Source of the DNA: Ignavibacteriota bacterium
Lineage (GTDB): Bacteria > Bacteroidota > Ignavibacteria > UBA10030
Direction of reading: 5' to 3'
Length of the DNA: 64,000 bases
NCBI GenBank assembly: GCA_963701295.1
Contig: OY969585.1
Coordinates: 512,827-576,826, forward strand
Under the pieces are notes generated by a model. It had not been told where the DNA came from. It saw nothing but the letters and a program-made list of their open reading frames with translations, and did no database searches. Positions 32,843-52,811 of this stretch are shown here, piece by piece; position 1 is the stretch's first letter, and every line of letters begins with the position of its first letter. A program made the translations under genes and the position numbers.

Positions 32843-33181
32843 CTAATATATAGAATCAGAAAGAAATTCAACTCCATCATCCAACTTGATAGATGCAATG
32901 GCACGGATAATTTTCTCAAGTTCCTTACGCTCGCTTGAAACATTGACACCAAGAAAATCAATATCCTTAGTGGGCCTTGCTTTCTCAATATTGTAAGCGA
33001 GAAGAAGGAAGCCGCCTTTTAACACAAACTTCTTTACATACTTTGATGCTGCAAGACGTGCAAGAAAGCGCTCCTGAATGTATCGCAGTAATAGAAAATT
33101 AAAATCAAGGTTTTCTTTTTCAGAAATATTTTTAAGGCGCGCTAGAACTGATGCGGAAACATTGGTAGTCGGTTTTTTCAT
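32843..33181 (-). CDS. AbiEii/AbiGii-family nucleotidyltransferase toxin, truncated (N-terminal about 112 aa only)
   Basis: N-terminal AbiEii motif. Full-length proteins are about 280-300 aa. The ORF ends at a cluster of palindromes. Confidence 0.55.
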   Translation of the reverse strand: MKKPTTNVSASVLARLKNISEKENLDFNFLLLRYIQERFLARLAASKYVKKFVLKGGFLLLAYNIEKARPTKDIDFLGVNVSSERKELEKIIRAIASIKLDDGVEFLSDSIY

Positions 33182-33771: not shown

Positions 33772-34188
33772 ACGGATGGTTCTAATTAGCTGCACATAAT
33801 ATAAACGTGCAGTAGAAAAGAAGCAAGAGGCTGGCAAAGATTTAATCAAAAACGCCTGACGCATTACCAGACGCCAGTCGTTTAGGGAGTCTAACTATGC
33901 GCTGTCGGGGAGACGGCACGGGAATATTGTATGAAATGTTCTGGTTTTTGTCAATTAATATTTTAGATGAAAAATAAAGACCCCGGCACATTTATAAGTA
34001 CCGGGGCTCAAGGGGAAGGGGGTAAAGAACCACTGCGCGCCAACACAGTGATGCTACTGAAAAATAGCCGTTGATATCTTCGGGGGATTGATATCAATTT
34101 ACCCCCTTTTTAATTTCCGATTCATAAACTTTTTATTGCTTGGCATAATGATATTTACTAACAAAGATTTAAATAGTCAATTTCTCGT

Positions 34189-36233: not shown

Positions 36234-39200
36234 CTATTCGCCACAACCCTCCAACCGAAATAAATAGAAATTGCCTAAGAAATCGCCGCAGGCGATGAGA
36301 TGGCTGTCCGGCGAAATGCTCACGGCAAATACTTCTGCATCACAACAGTAGCTAAGTATTACCTGTCCTGTCCGGCGATCCCATACCTTGACGGTATGAT
36401 CAAAGCTACCTGATATGATAAACCTGCCATCTGATGAGAACGCACATGTTACGACGGTGTCTTGGTGACCCACCAAGGTGGTGAGCGGCTGTCCTGTGTG
36501 GCGATCCCACAGTCTGACGGTGTGATCGTAACTGCCGGAGACGATCCATTGGCCATCCGGTGAAACTGCACATGCCGTGATACTTCCCGTGTGACCGGTC
36601 AGGGTGGCAAGATCTTTTCCTGTTCGGCTTTCCCAGAGTTTTAATGTGGTATCGTTACTACCGGACACAATCAAACTCCCCTCCGGGGAAAAAGCACATG
36701 ACTCAACGGAACTCCGGTGCCCACGCAACGTTGCCAGTTCGTGTCCCATCTTTGCATCCCAGAGTTTGACTGTCGCATCACCACCGCCGGACACAATGCG
36801 GCTGCCCTCCGGCGAAAAGGCACACGTGTTGACGCTTGTTTCATTATGCCCGATGAACGTCCAGAGCTGTTCGCCATTTGAACTGTCCCAAAGTTTCAGG
36901 GTCTTGTCCTTGCTACTCGAAACGATGCGGCCTCCATCTGGCGAAAAGTGAGAACATGTTACTTCATCGTCGTGCCCGGCCAGCGTTGCAAGCTCCCGGC
37001 CTTGGCGGCCGTCCCAGATCTTCAGGGTCTTATCTTTGCTGCTTGACACGATCCGCGCACCATCCCGCGAAAATGCCAGGTGACTGATACACGCGTGATG
37101 TCCTGCCAAGGTAGCCAACTTTTTGCTGCCTTTGGTATTCCAGATTTTGAGCGTGTTGTCGGTACTGGTCGAGACGATATGCGAGCCATCCGGTGAGATC
37201 GCGCATGACTTGGCGCCCTCGTAATCATTTGCCAAGGTTGCCAACTCTTTTCCAATTACGGCATTCCACAGTTTAAGTGTGGAGCCTCCTGACACTATCA
37301 AGTTTCCATCTGAAGAGAATTCACAAGTGGATACACTGCCGTCGTGTCCTGTAAAAGGTGGCATCTCTTTTCCCGTCGCGGTATCCCAGACCTTTATACC
37401 AACTCCGGTCCCGCAGACTATGCGGCTGCCATTCGGCGAAAATTCGCAACTATGTATCTCAGAAATACCGTGGTTTTCTCCCGTGAACAGTGTTCGCTTC
37501 TCACCTGTCTTGATGTTAGTTAACGTCAGTGTTTCATTCCAATTGAAACCTACATTTTCCCTGTTCTCTCCCAATGCCAAGAAGTTACCATCTCGCGAAA
37601 GACGACAGAAGCCAAGTGCAATACCTTGTTGCCTTGTCCGCGTAGAGAATGCGACTTCTCCAGTGTAAATGGACCGGATTTTTAGGATACCATCGATATT
37701 ACTATACGAAGCAATGCGATCACCGTTAGCCAAGTAGGTACAGTAATCGACACCGGATTCATATCCGGTCAGAGTTCCCTGCAACTTCTCGGTGGCCCGA
37801 TTCCAGACCTTGACAGTTTTGTCTTTACTGCTCGACGCGATGAATTTCCCATCAGGAGAGAACTGACAGCAAGTCACGGTGTCGGTATGGCCGGAAAGTG
37901 TGACGATTTCGCTCCCGGTATCTACATCCCAGAGCTTGACGGTTTTGTCTTTCCCCCCGGACACGATGACCTTTCCATCCGGTGAAAAGGCGCATGTCTC
38001 GACACTCTCCGTGTGCCCAGTTAGCGTCATTAGTAAATGAGATTCCATGAGTTGCGGTTCCCGGCATTGGCGGAGAAATTTGCCACCACGCGCTAGGAAT
38101 CGCTTCCGCAGGGCGTCGAATGCGTCACTTATTTGACCTGATTTCCAGGAAAGGTTGTTATACAGGTATTGAAACGCATTCCGCGGGTCTGAGCGTAGAC
38201 GATGCTGCTCCAACATAACGGTATTATAGTATGTAGCGATCTCGGTCGGATTGGCTATAGGTGGCTTTAATTCCAGCGCTCTTTGGTAATCTGCTAACAA
38301 ATCATTTAGCAAATCTCCTTTCACTTTGGCTTCAAGGAACAATAGGTCGCTCAACGTCGCGTTCAGAACATCTCTGTCTCCAGCGTTGATCTCCTGGAAG
38401 GGAAGCTCTACCAAAGCGTGGATATCGCTGCCAATCCAGGTTTCATTGCCGGTGGGATCAGCCTTCCACAGAAAGAACCGGGCGAGACGGGCGTGGTATG
38501 CTGGCCTGAGATAGCGCTGTTTGATTGCTTCGCCGATCTGCCGTTGGTAATAACTCATCAGCACTGTGTTATCGGCTGCGCGCTCAACCAGATACGGAGC
38601 CAAGTCATGGTAGAGTCTGAGCCAAACGACCACCGGAATTCCTTCCGCCTCCGGGGATTTGGCAGAGCGCGCTTTCAGGTCGTCCATGACGTCTTGGTCA
38701 GAAAGGAGCACGATGATTTCACTCTCGGACAATCCATTCCGGGCGGCGGATAATAGGCCAAGAAAGGTCTTGACTAACAGTTCCCCATGGTGGCGCTTGT
38801 CTTGCAGCCTGGTGAGCATATTATCTACCATCCCAGCTACATCCTCGGCAAGAACCGACACATCGTCCCAGGATTTCCACCTTCGAACCTCTTCAAAGGC
38901 CAGCTTCAAGTAGAGAGGATAAGGACATTTTCGGAATCCCGCCAACACGCGCTTCTGCTGCTGTTTTGTCAGCGAGCGATGGACATCGTGGAGCCAATGC
39001 TGCAACACCTGTGCCCCTTCCTTTTGCCGCATGTGATCTAGGCGAAGGAACATCCGTTCAGAATCCCGCGATTTTCTTGACATGTTGGTCGACATCCTAC
39101 TCAGCCACGTCACAGTTTTCTTGAGCATCTCCCGAACGAATGTCGGCCGTTCATCTTCGGACTCTATTAGGGATGCGACAATGCGCACATACGGCGGCAA

Positions 39201-40559
39201 GACTCTTGGCAGCCAGCTAATCATATTGGCCAAGTCAGAATAAGCCAACTCAGATACTTCGAGCTGATCGAGGGCGTCGAGAAAGATGATGAGTGGTCGC
39301 TGTGTTGTCGCTAAATCAAGGAGACGTATGAACTCCTTCTCCAGTTCTTTAGCTCCGGACGGGATGTTGCCAAGTTTCACATGATACGCCTCGCTGATCT
39401 CGCGAACCAGATAATATAGGAGTCCACGCATTTCTATCGAGTGAGGTGTGGCTCCAATGAAGCGTTGGATAACATAGGCGTGCGCCTGTGTGTCAACAGC
39501 TTCGCGCGCCGCCTTCGCCATCAGGGCGGATTTACCGCTACCCGTCGGGCCAAAGATAAAAAGGGTGTATTCGTTTTCGTTACGGAGGTAAGCCGTGATC
39601 TGGTTCAATTGAGTCTGTCGGCCTACGAAGTTCTTGCACCGATCTGCACCGAATTCCTGATGCGCTGATCGCTCGAGAGATAAGGCGTCGACGTCTGCTA
39701 GCCGTTGAAACTCCTCTTCCAGGATGTTCCTCAGCGACGCCAACGCATCGGCGGCGAACTGGGCGAGGTGTTCATTTAGCGTCGTGCCGTTCCATATGAC
39801 AGCATAATCGAAATGATTGATCCCGGGTTTCTGCCGGATTGCTTCCTTGAGGGCGCGCGCCTGTTCTATACCATCGTCAACGTAGGGACTATTATGAGGG
39901 AGTTCTTCGACATTCTCGATATTGCGCAGAAAGGCGACAACATGTTCCTGCTGATCCGGCAACGCTAGCGCTCCATGGATAATTTCTTGATGCGTAGCCG
40001 AGCACTCATATTTGATCCGGCGTTGGTCATTCATCGGCCATCCAAGATGGTTTATAGCGTCTAGCAAGATGGCGTGCAACGTCCGTTCTGTCTGGAACCA
40101 GGCGTCATAGTCTTTTTCCTCAGGCACATACTCACGGCGCGAGCGTAATAAATATTCTGGGGGCATGGCGTTGGTGTCGAGCCGGTACCAGTCCGCTAAT
40201 AGAGGACGGTGGGCGACTGGGACCGCGGAGCGAATCGTGTCGAATTCAGTTACCTCGATCTGCGGCGGCAACGGCAGCCACCCATAGCGGTCACCGAAGA
40301 GGATGAGGAAGTTCGGTCGGGGCGAAACGTCCTGGCACCGTTTGAGCTCAGTCAGGCAAATATTCATCGTTTGCTGGTCGAGCGCCGCTTCTTCGGTGAC
40401 CCCCCAGCGTAGGTCAATGGCCTGAAAGTGGCACTGGTTCGCCTCGCAGAATTTCTGCAGTTCAGGGAACACCTTCTCCTGGAGCGCGTTGCGTTCCTCT
40501 TTCATGTCGGCAAAAGTTGAGCTGACAAATACACGGAATATCTTGGTTTGTTTTTGCAT
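36234..40559 (-). CDS. STAND NTPase: DUF4062 N-terminal domain, NACHT ATPase and C-terminal WD40 beta-propellers (about 14 or more repeats); NWD1/TEP1-like architecture
   Basis: N-terminus IFRVFVSSTFADMKEERNAL... matches the DUF4062 pattern. Walker A IFGPTGSGKSALM. Many LxGHxxxVxxCAFSPDG...WD repeats. GC content is visibly higher than the surrounding DNA. Confidence 0.8.
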   Translation of the reverse strand: MQKQTKIFRVFVSSTFADMKEERNALQEKVFPELQKFCEANQCHFQAIDLRWGVTEEAALDQQTMNICLTELKRCQDVSPRPNFLILFGDRYGWLPLPPQIEVTEFDTIRSAVPVAHRPLLADWYRLDTNAMPPEYLLRSRREYVPEEKDYDAWFQTERTLHAILLDAINHLGWPMNDQRRIKYECSATHQEIIHGALALPDQQEHVVAFLRNIENVEELPHNSPYVDDGIEQARALKEAIRQKPGINHFDYAVIWNGTTLNEHLAQFAADALASLRNILEEEFQRLADVDALSLERSAHQEFGADRCKNFVGRQTQLNQITAYLRNENEYTLFIFGPTGSGKSALMAKAAREAVDTQAHAYVIQRFIGATPHSIEMRGLLYYLVREISEAYHVKLGNIPSGAKELEKEFIRLLDLATTQRPLIIFLDALDQLEVSELAYSDLANMISWLPRVLPPYVRIVASLIESEDERPTFVREMLKKTVTWLSRMSTNMSRKSRDSERMFLRLDHMRQKEGAQVLQHWLHDVHRSLTKQQQKRVLAGFRKCPYPLYLKLAFEEVRRWKSWDDVSVLAEDVAGMVDNMLTRLQDKRHHGELLVKTFLGLLSAARNGLSESEIIVLLSDQDVMDDLKARSAKSPEAEGIPVVVWLRLYHDLAPYLVERAADNTVLMSYYQRQIGEAIKQRYLRPAYHARLARFFLWKADPTGNETWIGSDIHALVELPFQEINAGDRDVLNATLSDLLFLEAKVKGDLLNDLLADYQRALELKPPIANPTEIATYYNTVMLEQHRLRSDPRNAFQYLYNNLSWKSGQISDAFDALRKRFLARGGKFLRQCREPQLMESHLLMTLTGHTESVETCAFSPDGKVIVSGGKDKTVKLWDVDTGSEIVTLSGHTDTVTCCQFSPDGKFIASSSKDKTVKVWNRATEKLQGTLTGYESGVDYCTYLANGDRIASYSNIDGILKIRSIYTGEVAFSTRTRQQGIALGFCRLSRDGNFLALGENRENVGFNWNETLTLTNIKTGEKRTLFTGENHGISEIHSCEFSPNGSRIVCGTGVGIKVWDTATGKEMPPFTGHDGSVSTCEFSSDGNLIVSGGSTLKLWNAVIGKELATLANDYEGAKSCAISPDGSHIVSTSTDNTLKIWNTKGSKKLATLAGHHACISHLAFSRDGARIVSSSKDKTLKIWDGRQGRELATLAGHDDEVTCSHFSPDGGRIVSSSKDKTLKLWDSSNGEQLWTFIGHNETSVNTCAFSPEGSRIVSGGGDATVKLWDAKMGHELATLRGHRSSVESCAFSPEGSLIVSGSNDTTLKLWESRTGKDLATLTGHTGSITACAVSPDGQWIVSGSYDHTVRLWDRHTGQPLTTLVGHQDTVVTCAFSSDGRFIISGSFDHTVKVWDRRTGQVILSYCCDAEVFAVSISPDSHLIACGDFLGNFYLFRLEGCGE

Positions 40560-40822: not shown

Positions 40823-42442
40823 TTAGATATGTTCCACTTTTACAAACTTCATCAGCGTAAGCCATTCTTGTGTTTCCTGCAACATTAGTTTCTCTGTATC
40901 GTGTAAAAGATCCTTGAACTTCTGAATTGTTGTCGTCTCAGCGAATTTGTGATCAAGTCCATTCAAAGCTGCGGCCATATCCTTGCTTCTTTTTTCCAAG
41001 CGAGCGTATTCACGATGAGTACGGATACCACCAATGGAGGCACCAACGACAGGCAGCACAATAGCGAGGAAGAATATTGGTTGCTCCAACCAGTTTGTCC
41101 CCTCCATATTGTTTAAGATCGTTGATAAAAGATGTATCGCTGCTATTCCTATTGCTATGAAAAATATTAGCATACCAAAATTTTCTAGCCTCTTGCTAAT
41201 CTTTCCAGTTTGATACGATTTCTTTAGGTGAAAATTAATTTGATCTTGGATGAATTGCTTCCGAATAAAGTCCACATGCGAATTTAAACTCTCTTTGCAG
41301 CATTTCTCCAAATTGCCTACTCCTCTTTCGATTTCATCAAATACGCGTATTGCCCAATCAATAGAACTCAATGATGATTTCATGTAACGTGGAATTATTA
41401 TTGGAGAGGGTTTTACTCCACATGAAATCAAAAAAATCGCTGAGCGAATACGCTCTACCAAGAACCTACTCTCTATCCATCTTTTGTGTGCTTGTTTCCT
41501 GTCTGTTTTGAATATGACTATAAATATGAAAAGCAAGACTATGAACTCAATGATAAAAGCAGGAAGAGATAATGAACGATTCAACATCCCCAGTGTAACG
41601 GCAGCAACGGCCAGTGGAGAAAGTATATACACCAGCAAACCCGCTGCAAGATAGCTCCTCTGATTGACCTTTGCTAAGATTGATGAATGTACATAGAATG
41701 GCAACAACTTTTCTCTGATACTATTTTTTACTTCATCAGGTATTCGCATACCTTCAGGCGTGTCAAACAAATTCCTGTAAACATTGTTGATATAAGTTTC
41801 ACGAACTTCCTCTCGAACAGAGAAACGATCGAACATATTAAGTCTTAATAAAGATTCACTATTTAATCCAATTCCTTTTTCTACTAAACAAATATTAGGA
41901 TCCTCTGATGAAAGGATAATGAGTGGACATTTCATTTTGCGCGTATAGGTTACTATATCAGCAGTCCCTCCCTTTCCTCGAGATGGCTTGCCATCCCATA
42001 TAGCGATGAGCATATCACAATGATCTACAATATATTGTCCAGTACCTTCATATGCTTTCTGACGATCTTTAGCGACATTTCTTTTCTCATGTAATTCCTT
42101 TAGCATGTCTTTTTTTATGATTATGTGATGATGGGATATCTGGTAGAGTTCTTCAAATTCTTTTTTTGATGTCAGGGTCTGAAAGTCTTTCACATATTCA
42201 TTCTTTGCAAAGGGCAGAATGACTTCAATTTCCGAATCAGGTGTCCTCATAATTTCATTTGCAACTAATCGATCCGCACCTTCCGCTAGCGCTGTGACAA
42301 CTGTAAATGCAAAAGGCGTTATAGACTTATACTTTGAAATCGGTTGATCAAACAACTCGTAGATTGAAGATTTTAGTATTTCCCTGACTTTGGAAGCAAT
42401 TATTTCGGGTTCCTTCAGGTACTCTATGACCTGTGACACCAA
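40823..42442 (-). CDS. SLOG-like Rossmannoid N-terminal domain fused to a C-terminal 4-TM SLATT-like membrane domain (predicted nucleotide-sensing membrane effector)
   Basis: N-terminal ...ALAEGADRLVANEIM...DHCDMLIAIWDGKPSRGKGGTADIV... is a LOG/SLOG/DprA-like motif. Four C-terminal hydrophobic helices. TTG start. Confidence 0.6.
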   Translation of the reverse strand: MVSQVIEYLKEPEIIASKVREILKSSIYELFDQPISKYKSITPFAFTVVTALAEGADRLVANEIMRTPDSEIEVILPFAKNEYVKDFQTLTSKKEFEELYQISHHHIIIKKDMLKELHEKRNVAKDRQKAYEGTGQYIVDHCDMLIAIWDGKPSRGKGGTADIVTYTRKMKCPLIILSSEDPNICLVEKGIGLNSESLLRLNMFDRFSVREEVRETYINNVYRNLFDTPEGMRIPDEVKNSIREKLLPFYVHSSILAKVNQRSYLAAGLLVYILSPLAVAAVTLGMLNRSLSLPAFIIEFIVLLFIFIVIFKTDRKQAHKRWIESRFLVERIRSAIFLISCGVKPSPIIIPRYMKSSLSSIDWAIRVFDEIERGVGNLEKCCKESLNSHVDFIRKQFIQDQINFHLKKSYQTGKISKRLENFGMLIFFIAIGIAAIHLLSTILNNMEGTNWLEQPIFFLAIVLPVVGASIGGIRTHREYARLEKRSKDMAAALNGLDHKFAETTTIQKFKDLLHDTEKLMLQETQEWLTLMKFVKVEHI

Positions 42443-42605
42443 TTTTGATCCGATAAGGAATATTGGATGGAGGCATGCTATTTTAGTTTCTCAAAATTAT
42501 AACGTATATGTATTTCTCGATTGGACAATCGCCTTACCTTTAGAAATGTTATTGCAATGACAAATCTTGGTTGGATATTAAGATAGGCACCGTAGTCCTA
42601 TTTGA

Positions 42606-45359
42606 TTATATGCTTACCTCTATCGGTGCTTTCCGCTCGAACGCCTCCAAAATAAGGTTATTCTTAACTTTGTCAAACGAGATCATCGTACCGGAAAGGT
42701 TGAACTGTTCAGGACAAGTACCTCGATATACACTGCCCTCGGATGTCTCGACGACCACAGGCGTTTCTATACAGTCCAGATCCACAGTGATACGTCTGAT
42801 CTCAGGAATACTGATACGCATCCAGCCGAGTGACTTCTCAACAAACTGGATATAGCCGTCATAGCCCAGCTTGTCAAAGTGCCCTACGATTGCACGGGGT
42901 TGTAACAGGAATTTCAGTAGAGAGGTGTCCCAATAAACTTGCTGGGGAATCAATGATGGTCTTTCCACCTCAGCAATCCGTTTGATCGTAAGGGGGGATG
43001 TTCTGTTGGTGCGGACGAGTGCAATCACAGCATCGCGGGTTACCAGACAGGGTCCCATCGTCAGGAACCTATAGTCATCATAATTCCCGAGCTTTCGTAG
43101 ACCTCCTGTGAAACAACCAATGTCTTTTGTTTCTATGGACATCTCGTTCTTCTTTGCGGTCATTGAGATAATCTGATCTGTCCTAATCTTGACTTCACCC
43201 AACAGATTATCGAGCACCGCAATTTCTTCGATAGTACCCCCTGCGGCATAGTCCAAAAGATAGCCAACTTGCCCTGTTTCGGAAATCTTGAAGAAAACCC
43301 TGTTGTCGTGAGAATCCACAAAAGTAGCATTCCAGCCCGTCAACCATATTTCCTTGCCACGCACGCTTGGTAACTGATACCAGGGCCAGCCATTCATAGA
43401 ATACTTTATGCCACTCCATTTGTCATCCATGCCCTTCTTCGCGTATTGCAGAGGCGTGCCCGGGAGGTAGGAAAAAGAGAGGACTTTCGAGTCCTTCGCT
43501 CCGATAGTAAAAGCTAGATCATTCGTTGCAAAAAGGAAGCGTTCAGAATTCGACTGAGTTTGTACACGCTCAGCCTGGACTTCCGACGCATCAGCTACCA
43601 CCTCCTGAGCCTGCTCCAGGAGAACTGCTCGCTGGGATGGTTCAACTTTCACAATCTCAGGAACGGGCGATGGTAACGATTTCGAGATATCTTTGGAGCT
43701 CGCTGCTTCCTTGTTTGCAGAAGGCCCCCCTGTTTTCCTGACCATATCGAAAATCCAGATATTTCGGTCGTCACCGCAGAACATCATGTTGCCTGATATG
43801 TGGGCTACATAGAAGAGACCGTCTTTTGCAAATCCGAGCCTCGGCTGTGTAGGTTGTGAGATGTCGTACACAAACAGTCGGCCACTATCGTTGTAGTATA
43901 GCCAATCATCGGATATATAGACTTGAACGCCAAAAAGGGTTTTGATTGTATGCTCTAAGGGCAGTTCGTAGCATGAATCGGACTCAAGCTCCTCTGGAAA
44001 ATTCTCGAGACTATACACGGCCAGTAGGGGACGAGAGGTTCTAAAGTCCTTCCCAAAAACGTACAATCGCCTGTTGCCAGAGACAATTCCTCCTGGGACA
44101 AGGCAACCGTCGGGGAACTCTACGGTTACCGTCTTGATCTCCACTACTTCTTCTTCCCTGAGGCGAACGATGCGTAATTGAGGATCTTTATAGTTGCCAA
44201 GAATCAAGTAGTCATCGAAGAGGGCGCCCGACCCTGCGCTGAAGTGAACAACACCGATTTCGCGAACATTCTTGCTGACTTCTTGCCGGTCAGAGAAATC
44301 GAGGACCTTAACGCCACAATTTTCTGAGTGGCACAAATCGATCACAATGTTCTTGTTATAGACAAGGAGTCCATTTCCGCAGTTATTGAAGATATTCCTG
44401 TGATAGTTCTCGAAAAACACTTCCTTCGGGTTCGTCGGATCCTTATAGTCGATGACTCTTATAGAAGCATCACGGCCTCGCAGCAATCCAATCTCCCCAA
44501 TGAGCTCAAACCACTTTGTGTCGATATAAGGAACAGGAAAGAGCGATATGAGTTTGGGTGACCGAGGGTCGGAGATATCAAACGCACGCATCCCGTCGTA
44601 CGTTGGCAAGAATGCGAGCGAACCGGATACAAGCAGGTTCATCGGATCCCCAGACTTCTTCTTGGAAATGAGATGCTCTTTCGCGGATGTACCAACAAGC
44701 TTCAATTCGACTGCTGTTCCGGATACCCACTCATTTTCAATAAGCGCGAAGCTGTCGTTTGTCGTGGTTTCATTGCTGACGATCGATTGAAAAGTCTCCG
44801 ATATTGGTGCAGGTTCATTCGATCTTGTTCCAATATGCTTCTGAGAAATAGATCGTTTCTCTGTTAATCGTTCTGATAGATTGCTACGTTGGCTGACAAC
44901 ACCATCAGTTGAATCCTTGTCTCTTAGCTCATCTGGAATCCCTTTGATTAGTTTTTTAAAATATGTGTTTTCATCAAGTTGGAACTTCAGGATTCCTTGA
45001 AGACGACTCATTCGCAAAACCATCCCCTCGGGCAACTTAACGTTTTCAAGAGAGACATAGAGAAAAGTCTTGTTTTTTATGATTGCGTAATTAATCTCAT
45101 CCTTGACATATTCTGATTCACGTGACCGCGCTGTGATGAAAACCAAAAATAATGAACAACCTTCTAATTGCTTCTCGATCACACTTGAAAACTCCGACGT
45201 AGCAACGATACCGTCGTCATACCAAATCCGGTAGCCCATAACATGCAGTCGTTTAATCTCTTTAAAAACGATATCACTGTCATCATGAGAATAGCTTACA
45301 AAAACATAGGGCTCTTTACCATCGTAAGCATCAAAAGGGGGTGAGATCTTAGTTGCCAT
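42606..45359 (-). CDS. TIR-domain protein fused to a large beta-propeller (LVIVD-like repeats)
   Basis: N-terminal TIR motif YVFVSYSHDDSDIVF...WYDDG...ESEYVKDEINYA. Recurring ...DISDPRSP... and ...YDISQPTQPR... motifs downstream. Confidence 0.75.
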   Translation of the reverse strand: MATKISPPFDAYDGKEPYVFVSYSHDDSDIVFKEIKRLHVMGYRIWYDDGIVATSEFSSVIEKQLEGCSLFLVFITARSRESEYVKDEINYAIIKNKTFLYVSLENVKLPEGMVLRMSRLQGILKFQLDENTYFKKLIKGIPDELRDKDSTDGVVSQRSNLSERLTEKRSISQKHIGTRSNEPAPISETFQSIVSNETTTNDSFALIENEWVSGTAVELKLVGTSAKEHLISKKKSGDPMNLLVSGSLAFLPTYDGMRAFDISDPRSPKLISLFPVPYIDTKWFELIGEIGLLRGRDASIRVIDYKDPTNPKEVFFENYHRNIFNNCGNGLLVYNKNIVIDLCHSENCGVKVLDFSDRQEVSKNVREIGVVHFSAGSGALFDDYLILGNYKDPQLRIVRLREEEVVEIKTVTVEFPDGCLVPGGIVSGNRRLYVFGKDFRTSRPLLAVYSLENFPEELESDSCYELPLEHTIKTLFGVQVYISDDWLYYNDSGRLFVYDISQPTQPRLGFAKDGLFYVAHISGNMMFCGDDRNIWIFDMVRKTGGPSANKEAASSKDISKSLPSPVPEIVKVEPSQRAVLLEQAQEVVADASEVQAERVQTQSNSERFLFATNDLAFTIGAKDSKVLSFSYLPGTPLQYAKKGMDDKWSGIKYSMNGWPWYQLPSVRGKEIWLTGWNATFVDSHDNRVFFKISETGQVGYLLDYAAGGTIEEIAVLDNLLGEVKIRTDQIISMTAKKNEMSIETKDIGCFTGGLRKLGNYDDYRFLTMGPCLVTRDAVIALVRTNRTSPLTIKRIAEVERPSLIPQQVYWDTSLLKFLLQPRAIVGHFDKLGYDGYIQFVEKSLGWMRISIPEIRRITVDLDCIETPVVVETSEGSVYRGTCPEQFNLSGTMISFDKVKNNLILEAFERKAPIEVSI

Positions 45360-45388
45360 AATTTAGCTCCAAATACTCTTTTAAAAAG

Positions 45389-47980
45389 TCAACTCAAGCT
45401 TGACACAATCTTATATTTTGCTTGTTTTAAAATATCAGGATATTTTCTTACGGAATTCCTGTCCTTCTCTTTGTTCTCTTCGGACAACTCGAGATACGGT
45501 TTCAGACAGTCATGTATTTTTTTTGAATCGTCTCGAGGTTTTCCACAGGTCCAACCATTTTCAATTTTATGGTCCATCCAGTCATTGTGTTCGGCTTCTG
45601 CAAGCATCTCAATGTTCGCTTCGATGATCTCCATAATCTCCACTATGGGTTGGGACTTTGAATAAGTCTCAGGTACTACATATAACCCTACCAGATCGAG
45701 TACATTAGGGATTCGAGCCGCGGCAGCCCGATTGTCGTCCTTGTAATCTTCTGATAATAAATCGAAATCCCGATTCATCTCTGACCGGATCCACTTTCCT
45801 TTTATTCCCGATTGCCAATAAAAATCGTGGACGAAGGGCGCCAGATCCTCCGCGTGGGTTTTGAACTTCAAATCCCGATTAACGATACCAATAAAATCTG
45901 CAGAATCTGCATGCATGGACAGGATCTCCTCAGACGGCAGATCGGATCTGCGTATTGAAGGAATGTCCTGCTTTTTCAACTGGAGGATAATTTTTTCTAA
46001 AGACCGGGCGCCATGTTTGAACCGATTGGTCTCAATGAGCGCTGAAAGGATACCATGGTCAATGGCCAGCGGTTCGGTTTCCTTCAATCCGAGCATTGCC
46101 CTGATCAGCAAGCCTCTTCTGACCGGGTAACATACGTCTTGGGAATCATCGATCCATTGTTGTTTTTTTGTATTGTAAGTCTGTTTCTGGTTCGGTCCGA
46201 GCACGTTCAAATACCCGCTAAGCCTGCTTATGAAGTCCGGACCTTTTTTCAATTTGAATTCATTCCACTTCTTTTCATCTGTCTCTTTTGGACCGAAGTT
46301 CTCCATATCATAGCTGGTACCGCCCGCGAACACAAAAACGCTTTTCCCAATCGGGTGTGAAATCTGACCCTCGAGAAATTTCCCATCTTGCATCGGCGCC
46401 AGAAGGTACTGCAACCATTGGTATTCCTTGGAATCAAATTCATCCCAGAACACAATCGGTAAAGTACCCTGAAGCACTTTATCTCTCACCTGATGGAAAG
46501 CCCCAATTAAAGCATCGGGATCCTTGAACTGAGATAGGTTAAATTCCAAAATGGGAACGTCTTTGCCGAGAATCCCTTTTGCGATCTCGCAGATTCCGAA
46601 GCTCTTGCCTGCTCCTGGAGGTCCGAACACAGCAAGGCTGAGCGGTTTCTTGCCTTTATCGTGATCTTTATAATCTATGATCATCGCGCGAATATTCCGC
46701 AGGCTTTCGATTTCATTTCGATCCGCGGTGTACAGTTTTCCAAATCGGGCACACGGAACCTGGGTCAACGCCTTGGGACCTTTAACAGCAACCCTACGGC
46801 CAATGCCAAAGAGTGGCCTTGGGTTTTTATGGATGCCTTCCAGAACAGCTGTCATAATCGTCCAGGTCTTGCGTTCTAGCTCGATAGACTTTTTGGGATT
46901 CGGTATCTGAATTATGGGATACCAAAATTTCGGATTCAGGACATCCTTAATCACATCGACGAGTGGGAATCCGGGGTTACTGCATCCCGCAGTCCCGTGC
47001 CCCGAGAGGTGCATGGTCCGCATCGCTGAAAGTCCTGCACGGATGCCTTCATAAATTGAATCTGAATGATTCGGTTGGAGTAGACGATCGATGATTCCTG
47101 AAGTGAGGCAGGCCATATAGCCGAGACCTTGTCCTTCAATTGGATCGCTCCATTCACGTTCAAGGTGTTCCGGATCGTAAACAAGATGAAAGATTTTCTC
47201 GCTAACGTTGTTTTCCACATGGAGCGCGCCTTCCGATCCGAAGTGAACAATGAGATGCCGGCAATTCAGCAGGGAATTAATTTCTGAATTGAAGCACAAT
47301 TCCTCTGCAAGTTCCAGAGCTGTTCGCTCCCACGAAATTCCCCTGCTCACTTTCACTTCTTCCCGTCGGATATCCCCGATTGAAACCACAACCACCAGCT
47401 TGTCGCGGAACTGGGTACTAAGATACCTCCACAGATCACCCTGACCCACTGGGCTTGACATTTTTAGGACAATCCACTTCAGTTCTTGTATCTCCTTTTT
47501 CAGAATCGACTTTGGCCATGCTCCCTTCTGTGTATTTTGCCTGAACCCAAGTCCACCGTCATCGATTACTACGACTGTGGGTTTGTTCGACGTTTCGGCT
47601 GCATGTTCCACGTAAGAGAAAGAAGATTCTATTTGACTACCATATCCTAGGGGCTGTGCCATTCTCCAAACTTTTTTATCCTTTTCAAAAGGAAACGGTT
47701 TCCAGAGTGCGTATCCATTCAAGGCCGCAGGAAGCTTTTTAAAAATATCATCTCTTAATCCGAACTGAACGTCAAACGGATTTTGAAGTTCTTTACTCTC
47801 AGATCTCTTTTTCCCTATTTCTTCGAGGATTCGAAAAAGAAGTCCAGCCCCGCCGTCTGTCGTTTGCTCCTGAGTTCCTGTTTTTTCTATAGCATTGGGA
47901 ACAAGACGTTCGCCCATATAAATTTGATGATCAACGACCACATCACCAGTAACTAAAACCGTTCTGGAGTTTCGAGGCAT
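45389..47980 (-). CDS. AAA+ ATPase with a C-terminal RyR (ryanodine-receptor-type) domain and a long N-terminal Rossmann-like region
   Basis: Walker A VFGPPGAGKSFG and Walker B IVFWDEFD. C-terminal EHNDWMDHKIENGWTCGKPRDDSKKIHDCLKPYLELSEENKEKDRNSV is the RyR-domain signature. Confidence 0.7.
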   Translation of the reverse strand: MPRNSRTVLVTGDVVVDHQIYMGERLVPNAIEKTGTQEQTTDGGAGLLFRILEEIGKKRSESKELQNPFDVQFGLRDDIFKKLPAALNGYALWKPFPFEKDKKVWRMAQPLGYGSQIESSFSYVEHAAETSNKPTVVVIDDGGLGFRQNTQKGAWPKSILKKEIQELKWIVLKMSSPVGQGDLWRYLSTQFRDKLVVVVSIGDIRREEVKVSRGISWERTALELAEELCFNSEINSLLNCRHLIVHFGSEGALHVENNVSEKIFHLVYDPEHLEREWSDPIEGQGLGYMACLTSGIIDRLLQPNHSDSIYEGIRAGLSAMRTMHLSGHGTAGCSNPGFPLVDVIKDVLNPKFWYPIIQIPNPKKSIELERKTWTIMTAVLEGIHKNPRPLFGIGRRVAVKGPKALTQVPCARFGKLYTADRNEIESLRNIRAMIIDYKDHDKGKKPLSLAVFGPPGAGKSFGICEIAKGILGKDVPILEFNLSQFKDPDALIGAFHQVRDKVLQGTLPIVFWDEFDSKEYQWLQYLLAPMQDGKFLEGQISHPIGKSVFVFAGGTSYDMENFGPKETDEKKWNEFKLKKGPDFISRLSGYLNVLGPNQKQTYNTKKQQWIDDSQDVCYPVRRGLLIRAMLGLKETEPLAIDHGILSALIETNRFKHGARSLEKIILQLKKQDIPSIRRSDLPSEEILSMHADSADFIGIVNRDLKFKTHAEDLAPFVHDFYWQSGIKGKWIRSEMNRDFDLLSEDYKDDNRAAAARIPNVLDLVGLYVVPETYSKSQPIVEIMEIIEANIEMLAEAEHNDWMDHKIENGWTCGKPRDDSKKIHDCLKPYLELSEENKEKDRNSVRKYPDILKQAKYKIVSSLS

Positions 47981-48308: not shown

Positions 48309-48377
48309 CTGACCTGCCCCCCAAAAAGTGATCCAATATAAATTTAGTAAAAAGTATATTGGTACTTGCCCCCATCG
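48309..48377 (-). repeat. Solo 69-bp remnant of the IS3 right end (inverted copy of 23925-23994)
   Basis: ctgacctgccccccaaaaagtgatccaatataaatttagtaaaaagtatattggtacttgcccccatcg is the reverse complement of 23925-23994 apart from one indel. No transposase follows. Confidence 0.8.
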
Positions 48378-48418
48378 TGGCAACAGAACAAACTATATTA
48401 ATAATAAAGGAGAGAAGT

Positions 48419-48631
48419 ATGGCACAGGAATGTGAATTGCTTGTTAAGTGTGGTTTTTTCAAGAAGTATCAAACCACAAAGGATTTGGCTTGCAAAGGTT
48501 TTATAATGCAGTATTGCACTGGACCCAAAATGAACGAGTGTGTAAGAAAACAATACCGTCAAGAACATGGTACACCACCATGTGACGATTTGATGCCTTC
48601 TGGTCAGATGATTGTAATTGGGAATAATTAA
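48419..48631 (+). CDS. Small Cys-rich hypothetical protein (70 aa, 6 Cys)
   Basis: Strong RBS (AAGGAGAG) 6 nt before ATG. MAQECELLVKCGFFKKY... Confidence 0.4.
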   Translation: MAQECELLVKCGFFKKYQTTKDLACKGFIMQYCTGPKMNECVRKQYRQEHGTPPCDDLMPSGQMIVIGNN

Positions 48632-48745: not shown

Positions 48746-48786
48746 AATAAAAAAGAAAATCTCGATGCGCTACTTAACATCGAGAT
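48746..48786 (-). terminator. Rho-independent terminator downstream of the rhodanese-domain gene
   Basis: Perfect hairpin ATCTCGATG-n10-CATCGAGAT with a T-run on the minus strand (A-run 48746-48758 on plus). Confidence 0.55.
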
Positions 48787-48867: not shown

Positions 48868-49623
48868 TCAACACCCGCCCTGTATCTTCTTTTGAACCTT
48901 CGTAGCTTTTGGCTGCTTATTCTTTGCGTCGGCGATCAACCGAGAAATTATCGTAGAAGCGTTTACACGAAATGTATTTACATCTGTATCCCACCGAGTG
49001 CCTGTGTTAACTGATTTGGGTGTAAGAATGGTGTGCTGGAAATTTTCCAAACCACCTTGCAACATTGCGATATTCTCATATCCTAATTCTTGCAAGAGTA
49101 ATGCCGCCGTCCTACTATCGTCTTCATTTGCACCTATGACTACTTTGGTCACACGCCGATCTGAAAGAATCGGAGTCAATTCTTTTCCAAATAGGTCTTT
49201 TACTTGCACATTGATCGAGCCTGGCAAGGCGAGTACTGCAAATTGTTCTGGCAAACGCATATCCACAACTTGTACGCTGCTTTCCTTGTCAATGATGCGA
49301 TATGCAAGCTCATCAGGTGACATGATCTTCACATTATGCGATGCACTGTATGATGCACTTTTGACTTTTTCTATTAAGCGTGCTTGACGAGACGGCAAAA
49401 ATAAAAACACAATACCCAACAAAATAATGCCAGCTCCGGCAATTTTATGCTTCAATGGTTTGAATTCCAATGACGGTGCTGAGGATTTATTCAATCTTTT
49501 TTCTATCACCGTCGTGATTGTGAAAGCACCGACTGCTACAGCAATAAGGATGAATGCAAATAATCCTTGCGAAATTCCGAGTGAATCAAATACTTTAATC
49601 GGTCCCAAGTGCTGTCGATTCAT
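48868..49623 (-). CDS. Membrane-anchored rhodanese-domain (sulfurtransferase-like) protein
   Basis: Two N-terminal TM helices, then a rhodanese fold ...VVDMRLPEQFAVLALPGSINV... The start is uncertain; the ORF extends to 49701. Confidence 0.55.
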   Translation of the reverse strand: MNRQHLGPIKVFDSLGISQGLFAFILIAVAVGAFTITTVIEKRLNKSSAPSLEFKPLKHKIAGAGIILLGIVFLFLPSRQARLIEKVKSASYSASHNVKIMSPDELAYRIIDKESSVQVVDMRLPEQFAVLALPGSINVQVKDLFGKELTPILSDRRVTKVVIGANEDDSRTAALLLQELGYENIAMLQGGLENFQHTILTPKSVNTGTRWDTDVNTFRVNASTIISRLIADAKNKQPKATKVQKKIQGGC

Positions 49624-50062
49624 AAAAAGTATGATAGAGCGGATAGAGTTCGCCGAACGCAAATACGCCCAAAATTCCGCCACCAACAAAGAACATAGCA
49701 TCGATCTTTCCGATTGCTGCTGCGCAGACCGATGTTCCCGGACAATAGCCGCCTATGATGAATCCGAATCCCATTATCACTCCGCCAATAATTGCAGGCA
49801 TCAGCCATGTTGGGTTAACATAAATGGATTGGAGGTCAAGGTAACCGAAATATGCAAGCAGTAAACTGCCGCTCATTGCCGTTACGGCCGCGGTGAAGAA
49901 TACGCGCAGTACGGTGAAATCATAACCATAAAATACTCCTGCCAATCGGCGTGAAGAGGAAAAACCGGCTTGCTCGAGCACAAAACCGAATGCAATGCCG
50001 ATGAGCAAGCCAACAATCAAATTTAATTGATCGGAAATAAGTTCAGGAACGAATGGTCCCAT
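49595..50062 (-). CDS. YedE-like sulfur-transport protein (YeeE/YedE family, second half-gene)
   Basis: MGPFVPELISDQLNLIVGLLIGIAFGFVLEQAGFSSS... with a GGYCPG motif. Confidence 0.7.
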   Translation of the reverse strand: MGPFVPELISDQLNLIVGLLIGIAFGFVLEQAGFSSSRRLAGVFYGYDFTVLRVFFTAAVTAMSGSLLLAYFGYLDLQSIYVNPTWLMPAIIGGVIMGFGFIIGGYCPGTSVCAAAIGKIDAMFFVGGGILGVFAFGELYPLYHTFYESTALGTD

Positions 50063-50073
50063 GGTCGTTTCTC

Positions 50074-50586
50074 CTATATCCACAACTTGCGGAAGAAGTA
50101 TGCAATCATATATCCGGATCCGAAGATCGCCATCATTGTTATGAAGCCGGCTGTCGAAAGTACAGCCATGCCGGTAAGTGCAGCACCACTGGTGCATCCG
50201 CGAGCAAACTGAGCACCGATTCCGAATAAGGCACCGCCAATTGCTGCGAATATCCAACGCGATTTAACGCTGATGCACGGACCGCCTTCACTCACGAATT
50301 TTAGCCTATCCGAAATCAATCCGGAGAGAAATCCGCCAATAAGCACTCCGGCAATTTCAAAGACAATCCATGATTTTAGGGGATTGTCTTTTCCTGCACC
50401 GACGTACGATCCATAGAATGATGATTGCTCGGCGTGTGCTGGTGCGACACCGTCAACCGTTGCCACAACGATGCTTTTGATTGCTCCACTGGCACCGAGG
50501 CCACGGCCTGTTACAAAAATTGCTGCCAGCAGCACAAGTCCTAAAAAAAAGCCAGCAAGATACGGATTCATATACTTCGTTTTCAT
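50074..50586 (-). CDS. YeeE-like sulfur-transport protein (YeeE/YedE family, first half-gene)
   Basis: ...GIGAQFARGCTSG... motif. 4 TM segments. Adjacent to its YedE partner. Confidence 0.7.
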   Translation of the reverse strand: MKTKYMNPYLAGFFLGLVLLAAIFVTGRGLGASGAIKSIVVATVDGVAPAHAEQSSFYGSYVGAGKDNPLKSWIVFEIAGVLIGGFLSGLISDRLKFVSEGGPCISVKSRWIFAAIGGALFGIGAQFARGCTSGAALTGMAVLSTAGFITMMAIFGSGYMIAYFFRKLWI

Positions 50587-50618
50587 AATTATCTCCTCAA
50601 AGACTCTTTTTAGATTTT

Positions 50619-51239
50619 TCAGGCGATGATTGCTCGTCGGGTAAGTCTTCGTACCCGGTCAAGCATTGCTTTCAAGTTCGATGTAATCGTACTTCCAGTT
50701 GTGATCAGATAAATATGTGCAATGAAGAACACCACGAGTAAAAAAGCACCAAGTGTATGCAAAGTCGCTACCACTTTTAATCCGGCAATATTCAGACTGA
50801 TGACCTCGTATCGCTGGGGATAGCGGTAAAACATATACACGAGTCCGCTTGAAACCATCAATGGTATTACTATCACCTTCAATCCGGCATAGACAATTTT
50901 TTGCAGTGGATTCAATTTGCTCAGTAATGTTTTCTTTGTAGGATGCGGTGCATTGCGAAATATTCCAAAAATGTAATACTCCATCTGTGCACGAAGGTTT
51001 TTTCGCGTAGGCAAGTATTGCCTCCATTCACCCGTTGTGACATGCCAGAAAATGGCAAAGACAATCAAGACCAGAAATGCAATAGCAGCAATGTTGTGTA
51101 ATTTTACTGCCTGTTCAAAACCAAAGAAATGGATGCTGCCATGAATTTCAAATCCTGTGAACCCGAGAAAGATAATCAACAGTGCCTGCATCCAATGCCA
51201 GAAGCGCTCGAATCCCTTATAGACATATTCGCGTTTCAT
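50619..51239 (-). CDS. Membrane di-heme cytochrome b (PhsC/FdnI/hydrogenase cyt-b family)
   Basis: MKREYVYKGFERFWHWMQALLIIFL... with conserved His residues in TM helices. The ORF has an upstream extension to 51473. Confidence 0.65.
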   Translation of the reverse strand: MKREYVYKGFERFWHWMQALLIIFLGFTGFEIHGSIHFFGFEQAVKLHNIAAIAFLVLIVFAIFWHVTTGEWRQYLPTRKNLRAQMEYYIFGIFRNAPHPTKKTLLSKLNPLQKIVYAGLKVIVIPLMVSSGLVYMFYRYPQRYEVISLNIAGLKVVATLHTLGAFLLVVFFIAHIYLITTGSTITSNLKAMLDRVRRLTRRAIIA

Positions 51240-51532
51240 GTGTTGTTCTCCTTCCGCTTTCTTGATGATACTATGCGCACACCGCCATGAATCAACACAC
51301 CGGCAAACGCGATCAGAATTAATCCCGTGCCGATATATTCTACCCAAGAAGTATAATCTCTTCCGGGAACGTAGAATCCAGTAAGAGAAGCGATTCGCCC
51401 ATTGTCGCGTGTGTGGCATTCTGCACACGGCACGGTTTTGTTTTTCGGTGAAATCATATGATTCACCGGCCAAGTCATTTCAGTTTCAACGAAACCGTAC
51501 TTACCGCTATAGGGAAGATTAACCATCTTCAT
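51236..51532 (-). CDS. Small monoheme c-type cytochrome (CAECH) with a C-terminal TM anchor
   Basis: Start MKMVNLPYSGKY follows directly after the upstream gene's stop. One CxxCH motif. Hydrophobic C-terminal helix. Confidence 0.5.
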   Translation of the reverse strand: MKMVNLPYSGKYGFVETEMTWPVNHMISPKNKTVPCAECHTRDNGRIASLTGFYVPGRDYTSWVEYIGTGLILIAFAGVLIHGGVRIVSSRKRKENNT

Positions 51533-51539
51533 TCCTTCT

Positions 51540-52811
51540 TCAGATGCCCTGTTCCAATTGAACTCTTTCCAGTATCCTCCATCCCCTTCCTTTGTTGAAA
51601 CGGTTTTCGGTTGAATGAGATATTTGTATCTGAGTATCGTAAATTTGTTTTGCACGATGTATTTTAACCGGCACAATTTTCGAATCGGGATCATCATAAC
51701 TGCCGTAAAGTGTATTGATCTTCACAGGTATTGATGGATCAATCGTATCTCCGACCAAATAATGTGAAGCAGTTCCATTGAACCAGATATAGTCCGGTTT
51801 CAAATTCTTTCCCCATACAAATGATCCCTTGATAGACATATAGATATCAGTTCCATTGGAATCCGTTTCCTCATACGGCTTGCCATCCTTCAGCTTTCCT
51901 GCTGTCGACCAATCCCAATAGAGTTTTGTCGGATTCACTTTGGCATATTCTGGGATATGACAGGTCTGGCAGGCAACCTTTAAAGTATGCTTATTAAGAA
52001 TATCGTCTGTGTGAGGCAGCTCAGTGTGGCATTGCTCGCACTCGACGCGATTGCGGTTCATTGAAGAAACAGAATACATCTTGCCTAGCATTTGATGCTT
52101 GCGAGCGGTATGGCAATCCACGCATTGCATATCTTCACCATCTGACGCCATATGAACATCGACATCGCGCGAGGGATCGAATAATGCTTTTTCGAGATCG
52201 CCATGCTTCACATTATTACCGCCGCCGCCGAAGAAATGGCATGTGCCGCAATTCGCACGCATCGGCTTTCCGACATGCTGGGCCACATTTGTTAAATTCA
52301 CCGAAGCATCTGGCATTCCGGCTCCACCAACTGCTTTTATGTAGGTGTTGCTATTATCATGGCATGCGAGGCAGTCCACATTCAACGGATTCTTAAAGTC
52401 AAATTTTTCATCTCCCCAGCCGTACCCGATATGGCATTTGTTGCAACTTTGTTCATTGCCGGAAATACCAATACAAAAATTGTTCAGAATATTTTTCTTG
52501 CCGAGCGTCCGAATGCCTTTGCCTTCCACATACTCCTGCCGCTCCCAATTCCAATGGCTGGATTGCATCACTTCTTTATGGCGTTCATTATGGCAAGCAA
52601 TACATGCAGAAGTAACTTCCTGGGGTGTCGAAAAATGTTTTTTGAGTTGCGTAAATTGCGTATGATCGACAGATGGTGTTTCTTTCTGTCGGTACTTCAT
52701 GCGCAAGGTTGTAAGCGGTGTCGTTGGTGTGCCATGGTCAGTCAGGGTCAACATGACCGTCAACGAAAGCACAAGAACACCAAGCCCGACGCTGATAATC
52801 GTTTTTTTCAT
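51540..52811 (-). CDS. Multiheme c-type cytochrome (7 CxxCH motifs; octaheme tetrathionate-reductase-like family, putative)
   Basis: Signal peptide. CIACH, CNKCH, CLACH, CGTCH, CVDCH, CEQCH, CQTCH. Confidence 0.7.
   Translation of the reverse strand: MKKTIISVGLGVLVLSLTVMLTLTDHGTPTTPLTTLRMKYRQKETPSVDHTQFTQLKKHFSTPQEVTSACIACHNERHKEVMQSSHWNWERQEYVEGKGIRTLGKKNILNNFCIGISGNEQSCNKCHIGYGWGDEKFDFKNPLNVDCLACHDNSNTYIKAVGGAGMPDASVNLTNVAQHVGKPMRANCGTCHFFGGGGNNVKHGDLEKALFDPSRDVDVHMASDGEDMQCVDCHTARKHQMLGKMYSVSSMNRNRVECEQCHTELPHTDDILNKHTLKVACQTCHIPEYAKVNPTKLYWDWSTAGKLKDGKPYEETDSNGTDIYMSIKGSFVWGKNLKPDYIWFNGTASHYLVGDTIDPSIPVKINTLYGSYDDPDSKIVPVKIHRAKQIYDTQIQISHSTENRFNKGRGWRILERVQLEQGI

Follow-up and report, generated by a model that had tools for sequence, protein, structure and literature searches.

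A widespread protein family joining a ribokinase-like fold, an AAA+ ATPase and a ryanodine-receptor Repeat12 module in TIR/SLOG gene neighbourhoods

Introduction

What does a large ATPase that ends in a ryanodine-receptor (RyR) domain do beside a TIR gene and a SLOG gene in a bacterial genome? The question is raised by a DNA stretch of 64,000 nucleotides (the window, in whose own numbering positions are given below) from an Ignavibacteriota bacterium (assembly GCA_963701295.1, contig OY969585.1, positions 512,827 to 576,826 of the forward strand), which encodes on its minus strand, at 45389..47980, an 863-amino-acid (aa) protein here called the hub. Profile searches, structure prediction and comparison of gene neighbourhoods reveal that the hub consists of an N-terminal domain of ribokinase-like fold, an AAA+ ATPase and a C-terminal RyR Repeat12 module, and suggest that it is a new and widespread core component of TIR/SLOG nucleotide signalling, undescribed in the open-access literature consulted and in PADLOC-DB. 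Judged from its sequence, the hub probably reads an ADP-ribose (ADPR)-type alarm signal of adjacent immune enzymes that cleave nicotinamide adenine dinucleotide (NAD).

TIR-based nucleotide signalling is common to bacterial, plant and animal immunity. In the Thoeris systems a ThsB TIR protein is paired with a ThsA effector, with type III having several TIRs and a SLOG effector and type VII a SLATT effector (survey preprint), and recent preprint work identifies DUF4062 as a TIR-like NADase (an NAD-cleaving enzyme) that produces ADPR.

The hub gene and its family

The hub gene was delimited by translation of its open reading frame (ORF), has an AGGAG ribosome-binding site 8 nt 5' of the ATG, and belongs to a protein family far beyond chance, with 2472 homologues detected. 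The best 120 of these are nearly all full-length (~850-950 aa) and come from many phyla, and full-length homologues reach down to 43% identity. The three-part architecture is that of a stable family of ~1,400 clusters at 50% identity, spread patchily over many bacterial phyla and two archaeal genomes. An AlphaFold2 (AF2) model built with a 60-homologue alignment (predicted local distance difference test, pLDDT, 85.5; predicted template modelling score, pTM, 0.82) unites ribokinase fold, AAA+ module and Repeat12 in one confident model, and this assignment of domains is held with high confidence.

The Repeat12 module and its predicted pocket

The C-terminal RyR Repeat12 module (aa ~700-863; 45392..45883, minus strand) was recognised by Pfam, phmmer and Foldseek. 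The earlier note on this DNA, made from the sequence alone, had quoted a C-terminal string (aa 808-844) as a RyR-domain signature, and Pfam agrees, with a RyR match (PF02026) at aa 780-858 of 59.7 bits against a cut-off of 27.4. Phmmer searches of the PDB sequences match the hub to the RyR repeats of RyR1-3 and to a small Bacteroides RyR protein, and Foldseek aligns 174-195 columns to 6uhi (a Bacteroides/human chimera) and to RyR3 Repeat12 with ATP/AMP-PCP, at template modelling (TM) scores of 0.53-0.60; phage RyR proteins in BFVD match the module as well. Within the hub module, repeat 1 (aa ~705-765) is degenerate and repeat 2 is canonical.

Two phage RyR-domain proteins acting on signals made by TIR proteins, each described in a 2026 preprint, provide the comparison for ligand contacts. 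RyDEP is a glycosidase of the cyclic ADP-ribose (cADPR) isomers 2'/3'cADPR, acting via H75, W78, H100 and D117, and of the tested RyDEP homologues that share these residues, most bind the signal without cleaving it. RyR Tad binds 3'cADPR with a dissociation constant (KD) of 43 nM, as well as 2'cADPR and cADPR, through H129/W132, K147/H154 and K170/D171; the phage RyR proteins are dimers. By published numbering and spacing, rather than by direct alignment to RyDEP or RyR Tad, a nucleotide pocket is predicted in repeat 2 of the hub, consisting of H798, W801, R816, H823, K839 and D840 (45461..45589, minus strand). Its residues lie at +3, +18, +25, +41 and +42 from H798, equal to the spacing of the corresponding six residues in RyR Tad, and the spacing of the four RyDEP residues is matched also. 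All six positions are invariant or at least 90% conserved across the hub family. The hub module thus shares with the phage proteins the PF02026 family, the Repeat12 fold and ligand-contact residues at identical spacing; however, whereas RyDEP and RyR Tad are small homodimers that counter defence, the hub module is host-encoded at the C-terminus of an 863-aa ATPase, has its two repeats in tandem on one chain, of which repeat 2 alone is intact, and is predicted to handle such ligands.

Gene neighbourhoods across genomes

Neighbourhoods were compared in the best 80 of at least 259 genome loci, each from a different species; they span many bacterial phyla and two archaea and, with the window, make 81 loci in which ORFs were called and searched with jackhmmer profiles seeded from the window neighbours of the hub, among them a TIR protein, a SLOG-SLATT protein and a DUF4062-STAND protein. 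The counts are approximate because they rest on these ORF calls and profiles, and divergent DUF4062 domains are under-detected (e.g., in locus L005). SLOG domains homologous to the window SLOG-SLATT protein were found in 37 of the 81 loci, and in 26 of those 37 the SLOG lies no more than 100 bp from the hub, overlaps it or is fused to it; most of these SLOGs have the orientation of the hub and lie downstream of it. Of the 81 loci, 39 contain TIR domains and 20 contain DUF4062-STAND proteins. One or more of the three partner types was found in 39 of the 44 fully flanked loci (89%), i.e., those with at least 5 kb on each side of the hub. Unbiased clustering of all neighbours revealed no conserved family besides these three, the next largest cluster comprising 6 loci.

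The partner genes are themselves varied. On Pfam-annotated contigs TIR_2 is fused to Kelch, TPR, FGE-sulfatase or STAND modules, and DUF4062-NACHT-WD40/TPR proteins are present. Among close relatives of the hub, one that is 85% identical (L084) is followed after 30 bp by the same TIR gene, one that is 76% identical lies in the gene order TIR, hub, standalone SLOG, TIR, and one that is 71% identical is preceded by a TIR-STAND-WD40 gene. Rare fusions join the hub to SLOG (L056, L078) or to TIR (P0237), and the ribokinase-like/AAA part to NACHT-TPR (P0148). The earlier note had left as a question whether AAA-RyR proteins are conserved next to TIR or SLOG genes or are scattered in unrelated contexts; with partners at 39 of 44 fully flanked loci they are not scattered, and the TIR/SLOG link is no local coincidence but is conserved across phyla; natural fusions back it. 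Membership of the hub in an NAD-derived conflict system is considered likely, and its tightest partner is SLOG, not TIR.

The dependence between SLOG and hub was also seen from the other side. A reciprocal metagenome search with the SLOG-SLATT protein returned 80 loci, about 20 of which contain a hub. Standalone SLOGs of the window SLOG family have an adjacent hub in 7 of 8 cases, and the more distant SLOG-SLATT fusions are mostly without a hub and often beside TIR genes. TIR and SLOG-SLATT therefore form an autonomous pair, and a SLOG without an effector domain depends on the hub; since standalone SLOG adjoins the hub while SLATT-fused SLOG occurs without one, the hub stands where an effector would be.

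Further Repeat12 proteins in hub loci

Some 24 of the 80 hub loci have, besides the hub itself, from one to three more genes for RyR Repeat12 proteins. In those checked with Pfam, Repeat12 is C-terminal to TrkA_N, RelA_SpoT-LSDAT(SLOG), NUDIX-RelA_SpoT, a dual-specificity phosphatase or TIR alone, and in a TIR-NACHT STAND protein it takes the position where STAND proteins carry the sensor (the representatives other than TrkA_N are at L004:3448-6018, L014:1807-4356, L020:3713-6625, L077:7619-8656, L066:13545-15983 and L071:12352-14331). A C-terminal Repeat12 on such varied enzyme and effector domains is the pattern expected of a shared ligand-sensing domain. Small standalone RyR proteins of ~90-115 aa also lie near the hub, directly upstream of it in most cases (L065:9932-10213, L062:9932-10219, and also in L002, L010, L013 and L051); proteins of 94 aa are among those directly upstream, and the one of L065 matches the whole length of the Pfam model with 124 bits. 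These small proteins resemble the sponge-type RyR proteins of phages, yet are host-encoded.

A protein of ~580-660 aa joining TrkA_N to RyR Repeat12 recurs beside the hub, or beside hub and SLOG, in several genomes (L031:7672-9501, L047:13155-15143, L014:68-1807, L026:17585-19471, L077:2394-4202), and may act as a further effector under the control of the hub ligand. SLOG, Nudix and RyR Repeat12 are ADPR-related regulatory domains of the animal TRPM2 and RyR channels; all three co-occur here within single bacterial loci.

The AAA+ module

The 863-aa frame with its Walker A (GPPGAGKS, aa 453-460; 46601..46624, minus strand) and Walker B (IVFWDEFD, aa 509-516; 46433..46456, minus strand) motifs can be read directly from the translation, as the earlier note had done. 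Both motifs lie in an AAA+ ATPase module with lid (aa ~425-690; 45911..46708, minus strand), delimited by profile comparison with the PDB. Invariant in 60 homologues are G453, P455, G456, G458, K459 and S460 of Walker A, W512, D513, E514, F515 and D516 of Walker B, and in addition R586 and R659. The Pfam AAA model (PF00004) gives the hub itself 20.6 bits, just below the cut-off of 21.2; several homologues exceed that cut-off, with homologues scoring 27-31 bits, and the family ATPase profile finds its best PDB relatives in the second nucleotide-binding domain (NBD2) of Hsp104, ClpB, ClpE, ClpC and Skd3 (E 3.5e-7). The AAA+ assignment of the earlier note is upheld, as is its RyR assignment.

With the NBD2 of the Clp/Hsp100 proteins (ClpB, Hsp104, ClpC, Skd3) the hub shares the Walker motifs, an LLxxMDDG-like segment, a PxF-x-R arginine region (the invariant S585-R586 aligns to PEFLNR of Hsp104) and a GAR sensor-2 (HGARSLE, with the invariant R659, in the helical lid). 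However, the GYVG pore-loop segment is deleted in the alignment of the hub-family profile to Hsp104, and a Clp-like unfoldase role was rejected on this account. In the absence of a substrate-threading pore loop, the module is more likely an ATP-driven assembly or conformational switch than an unfoldase. In contrast to the Clp/Hsp100 proteins the hub is, moreover, a single ATPase ring module without GYVG, middle domain, N domain or associated protease, which makes protein threading doubtful. The hub also has features in common with the MoxR-vWA and STAND conflict systems of multicellular bacteria (Kaur et al. 2020, PMC7159879), i.e., an AAA+ core, variable TIR, STAND, WD40 and TPR partners, hosts rich in such genes, and a weak bpMoxR match. 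Membership in the MoxR-vWA ternary systems was nevertheless rejected, because the bpMoxR match is below its cut-off and a vWA partner is lacking; the hub ATPase is Clp-NBD2-like rather than MoxR, and RyR and ribokinase-like domains are unmentioned in that paper.

The N-terminal ribokinase-like domain

The earlier note had described the N-terminal ~300 aa as Rossmann-like and had proposed an AlphaFold check. The domain proves longer, at ~400 aa (aa 1 to ~400; 46781..47980, minus strand), and the AF2 model compared with the PDB by Foldseek identifies its fold more precisely as a divergent ribokinase/PfkB fold with lid hairpins. The best match is to LacC (2awd; E 1.5e-8, TM 0.57), with further matches to ribokinases, HldA and nucleoside and pseudouridine kinases, and in total more than 40 PfkB structures support the fold (E 1.5e-8 to 1e-6, probability 1.00). 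At the sequence level, the domain has no match in Pfam (up to E 10), NCBIfam or PADLOC, the family profile of the domain finds only noise among PDB sequences, and hhalign against a provisional sequence of E. coli RbsK gives a non-significant probability of 0.2, with only the first-strand and GG motifs aligned. Searched alone against 1.84 billion representative proteins, the domain returns 1431 clusters, nearly all of 850-950 aa, and is therefore essentially confined to the hub architecture.

Within the domain, G12, D13, G44, D141, R147, W217, D269, E274 and G287 are invariant in 60 homologues, E218 is kept in 59 and K173 in 56. The hub shares with the PfkB/ribokinase proteins the three-layer alpha/beta fold and beta lid, together with a GD...D(H) first strand and a GG dipeptide at the positions of the ribokinase substrate-binding motifs. 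It differs in lacking profile-level similarity, in an 18-residue insert that carries the invariant E274 and precedes Y288 and the anion-hole helix, and in the position of the GAGD catalytic Asp (assigned by motif and secondary-structure position), which is Y288 in the hub and Tyr, Phe or Gly across the family.

The gene cluster of the window

In the window the hub is followed on the same strand, as the earlier note had recognised (giving the gap as 30 bp), by a TIR gene; the spacer measures 29 bp in the sequence and contains a GGAG ribosome-binding site (45360..45388, minus strand). Its 917-aa product (42606..45359, minus strand) was identified with Pfam profiles (TIR_2 52.4 bits, ThsB_TIR 24.4 bits) and contains a TIR domain (aa 17-130), an LVIVD-type beta-propeller and a conserved C-terminal domain. 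E88 is the Glu at the catalytic position of this TIR, and the Glu is kept in 51 of the 52 neighbouring TIR domains of hub loci.

The next gene (40823..42476, minus strand) encodes a SLOG-SLATT protein whose intact product of 550 aa was established from the reading frames, an independent assembly and AF2. The model of the intact protein (pLDDT 90) has an N-terminal domain resembling YpsA, a SLOG-superfamily protein (2nx2; E 9e-5, TM 0.71), and a C-terminal half forming a helical SLATT domain (NCBIfam SLATT_1, 41.2 bits against a cut-off of 41); members of this SLOG family give weak Pfam matches to YpsA, YAcAr, DprA and nucleoside deoxyribosyltransferase. As assembled in the window the ORF has 539 aa, with a 1-nt insertion at 42418 (extra C, GTAC[C]TGAAG) shifting the frame 18 codons into the gene and removing those first 18 codons, including the near-invariant IGVTGHR strand. 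An independent Logan assembly (L083, from ERR10755942), 99.96% identical over 9.3 kb, is without the extra C and encodes the intact 550-aa protein (P0378). The frameshift may equally be an assembly or sequencing error or a strain-specific inactivation (pseudogene).

A three-gene operon of hub, TIR and SLOG-SLATT, as the gaps of 29 and 129 bp on the same strand suggest, is plausible. A fourth gene, for a 1441-aa DUF4062 (TIR-like NADase)-NACHT/STAND-WD40 protein identified with Pfam (36234..40559, minus strand; DUF4062 47.3 bits, AAA_16 55.5 bits, WD40 385 bits, with HTH_NWD1 also matched), belongs to the same partner set as TIR and SLOG, its homologues being close to the hub in 20 of 80 genomes. 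Its guanine-plus-cytosine content of 0.49-0.52, against ~0.38-0.48 in the cluster neighbours, suggests an acquisition separate from the remaining cluster.

Scans of the window for sigma-70 promoters and terminators gave matches at chance level, as did the sigma-54 promoter pattern, which is not found upstream of the hub. A hairpin with a 10-bp stem followed by a T-run at 48759-48786 (minus strand), just 3' of a rhodanese-domain gene, is consistent with the hub opening its own transcription unit, though the terminator scan was overall at chance. An AT-rich gap of 888 bp upstream of the hub gene contains a 90-aa cysteine-rich ORF (48359-48631, plus strand). Sigma-54 enhancer-binding ATPases recur by hubs, as a 4-locus cluster and on two annotated contigs (window 31655-32563, L058:7798-9453, L081:21704-22712), the window copy having just 302 aa and lacking an N-terminal sensor domain. 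An AbiEi-type antitoxin-domain gene (33178-33864; 26.6 bits, cut-off 25) lies 2.4 kb from the cluster and is overlapped by a downstream ORF at 32843-33229; metabolic genes may here enclose a small defence islet. Several pairs of ORFs that overlap on the same strand but in different frames were seen in the window at 48868-52811, 56957-59259 and 203-2307 (e.g., 48868-49701 / 49595-50257 / 50074-50586 and 50619-51473 / 51236-51697 / 51540-52811), which suggests further frameshifts or indel errors in the assembly, including in a multihaem cytochrome region.

Relation to known systems

As in Thoeris, the window and other hub loci encode a SLOG-bearing protein and a SLATT membrane effector next to a single TIR gene, or several, with the catalytic Glu retained, and variable sensors feed a constant partner; in the window itself, a TIR with the catalytic Glu has alongside it the gene of a SLOG-SLATT signal-binding effector, frameshifted here. 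Hub loci differ from Thoeris, however, in lacking a SIR2, Macro or caspase effector, in using DUF4062-STAND NADases in place of TIR in many cases, and in their constant gene, i.e., the ribokinase-like/AAA+/Repeat12 protein, which is absent from the Thoeris descriptions consulted. PADLOC-DB v2 has no model for the hub, whose sole match there is a spurious P-loop hit (mad8, E 0.0037), and PADLOC models on the window cluster give weak ThsB matches only. In the open-access literature consulted, the hub is unmentioned in the Thoeris survey preprint, an eLife paper on NTP-dependent conflict systems (PMC7159879), two DUF4062 preprints and two phage RyR preprints.

Proposed mechanism and alternatives

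From the domains, the pocket and the neighbourhoods one may infer a ligand, a direction of signalling and an output activity, and the reading that is preferred, though tentatively, is that the hub serves a Thoeris-like system of NAD-derived signals as an ATP-dependent effector or transducer gated by Repeat12. Sensor-NADases, i.e., TIR proteins fused to propellers, TPR, Kelch or STAND and the DUF4062-NACHT-WD40/TPR proteins, would upon triggering cleave NAD+ to ADPR or a cADPR isomer, and the Repeat12 module would be the receptor of the nucleotide so made. Ligand binding would then switch the Clp-NBD2-like AAA+ module through ATP-driven assembly or conformational change, and the switch would control the ribokinase-like domain as the likely output, which would act on a small molecule containing ribose in an ATP-dependent manner. 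The YpsA-like SLOG protein, adjacent or fused, would be a co-receptor or partner of the hub that shares in the output, with the window SLOG predicted to carry its own membrane-disrupting effector in SLATT.

Several observations weigh against such an effector. The glycosidase H/D dyad of RyDEP is also conserved in the hub, so that the pocket may serve to break down the signal and not to sense it; because this dyad and the sponge residues occupy the same positions, sensing and degrading are inseparable on the present data. Since TIR and SLOG-SLATT pairs exist without a hub, the hub would also be dispensable for minimal signalling in the window and could be an accessory regulator. Alternatively, the hub might be a host-encoded sink or off-switch for the signal, in which Repeat12 hydrolyses (like RyDEP) or sequesters (like RyR Tad) basal TIR-made cADPR isomers; this would set a threshold, avert autoimmunity or reset the system, and the product would be recycled, or turnover regulated, by the kinase-like and ATPase parts. 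The invariance of H798 and D840, the equivalents of the catalytic dyad, agrees with this, as does the autonomy of TIR and SLOG-SLATT elsewhere, by which the hub is an add-on in window-like loci, and so do the sponge-like proteins directly upstream of some hubs, such as the 124-bit example of L065. Yet a sink has no need of an 860-aa protein with a conserved ATPase and a conserved 400-aa kinase-fold domain, standalone SLOGs without an effector domain depend on the hub, in hub loci Repeat12 forms the C-terminus of enzymes plainly of effector type (RelA_SpoT, phosphatase), and most of the tested RyDEP homologues bind but do not cleave; a sink is considered unlikely, if worth keeping in view. The N-terminal domain presents a different difficulty, in that it is without sequence-level kinship to the PfkB kinases and, with the canonical catalytic Asp missing, may only bind a ligand. 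The same two features count against a signal-maturation enzyme, in which Repeat12 would capture ADPR (or open cADPR isomers to ADPR), the ribokinase-like domain would phosphorylate the terminal ribose, and SLOG would read the new messenger. Such an enzyme would fit well with the best fold matches, which are phosphosugar kinases that phosphorylate a sugar phosphate at its anomeric carbon or beside it (LacC, fructose-1-P kinase, HldA), with the invariant polar residues that line the domain (D13, D141, R147, D269, E274, and K173 in 56 of 60), with the very tight coupling and fusion to SLOG, and with TIR and DUF4062 partners that both yield ADPR-type products; but about half of the loci are without a SLOG within 10 kb and the AAA+ module is left without a role, and this explanation is regarded as improbable.

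The extra Repeat12 proteins bear on a further alternative, since the TIR-Repeat12 fusions are also compatible with RyR Repeat12 as a homotypic adaptor in the manner of effector-associated domains, the hub being a scaffold that recruits Repeat12-ended TIR, RelA_SpoT and TrkA_N proteins onto an AAA+ oligomer. That roughly three in ten loci encode such proteins and that phage RyR proteins are dimeric speak for a scaffold, whereas the most conserved positions are ligand-contact residues and not merely dimer-interface helices, and the window and most other loci are without a second Repeat12 protein, which leaves it a still fainter prospect. Lastly, in ~10% of fully flanked loci the neighbours are housekeeping genes only, with no partner genes, and the same loci, the absence of PADLOC-DB matches and the metabolic genes immediately flanking the window cluster would suit a housekeeping or stress regulator of NAD/ADP-ribose or nucleotide metabolism that is merely located in variable genome regions. 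This non-immune role is very improbable given the TIR, DUF4062-STAND or SLOG(-SLATT) genes carried by 89% of fully flanked loci, the direct fusions, the patchy spread over many bacterial phyla and two archaea, and the AbiEi-type gene near the window cluster.

Meaning

To our knowledge, the demonstration that Repeat12 binds or cleaves cADPR isomers is confined to 2026 preprints on anti-defence proteins of phages. The hub family would be the first host-side use of the cADPR-isomer pocket, joined to an ATPase and a kinase-fold domain, and the proposed mechanism, if true, would add a new effector/transducer class to Thoeris-like immunity and give a function to a family of ~1,400 clusters. More speculatively, and with considerable doubt, RyR Repeat12 could be, beyond its use by phages against defence, an ancestral cellular receptor for NAD-derived messengers, with the hub/SLOG/RelA_SpoT/NUDIX set as the prokaryotic source of animal channel domains (Repeat12 of RyR; SLOG and Nudix of TRPM2); in the boldest version, the kinase-fold domain of the hub would turn ADPR into a new phosphorylated messenger read by SLOG. 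If confirmed, the hub would also offer a tractable bacterial model for the long debate over a possible action of cADPR-type ligands on the Repeat12 region of ryanodine receptors, and over its mechanism.

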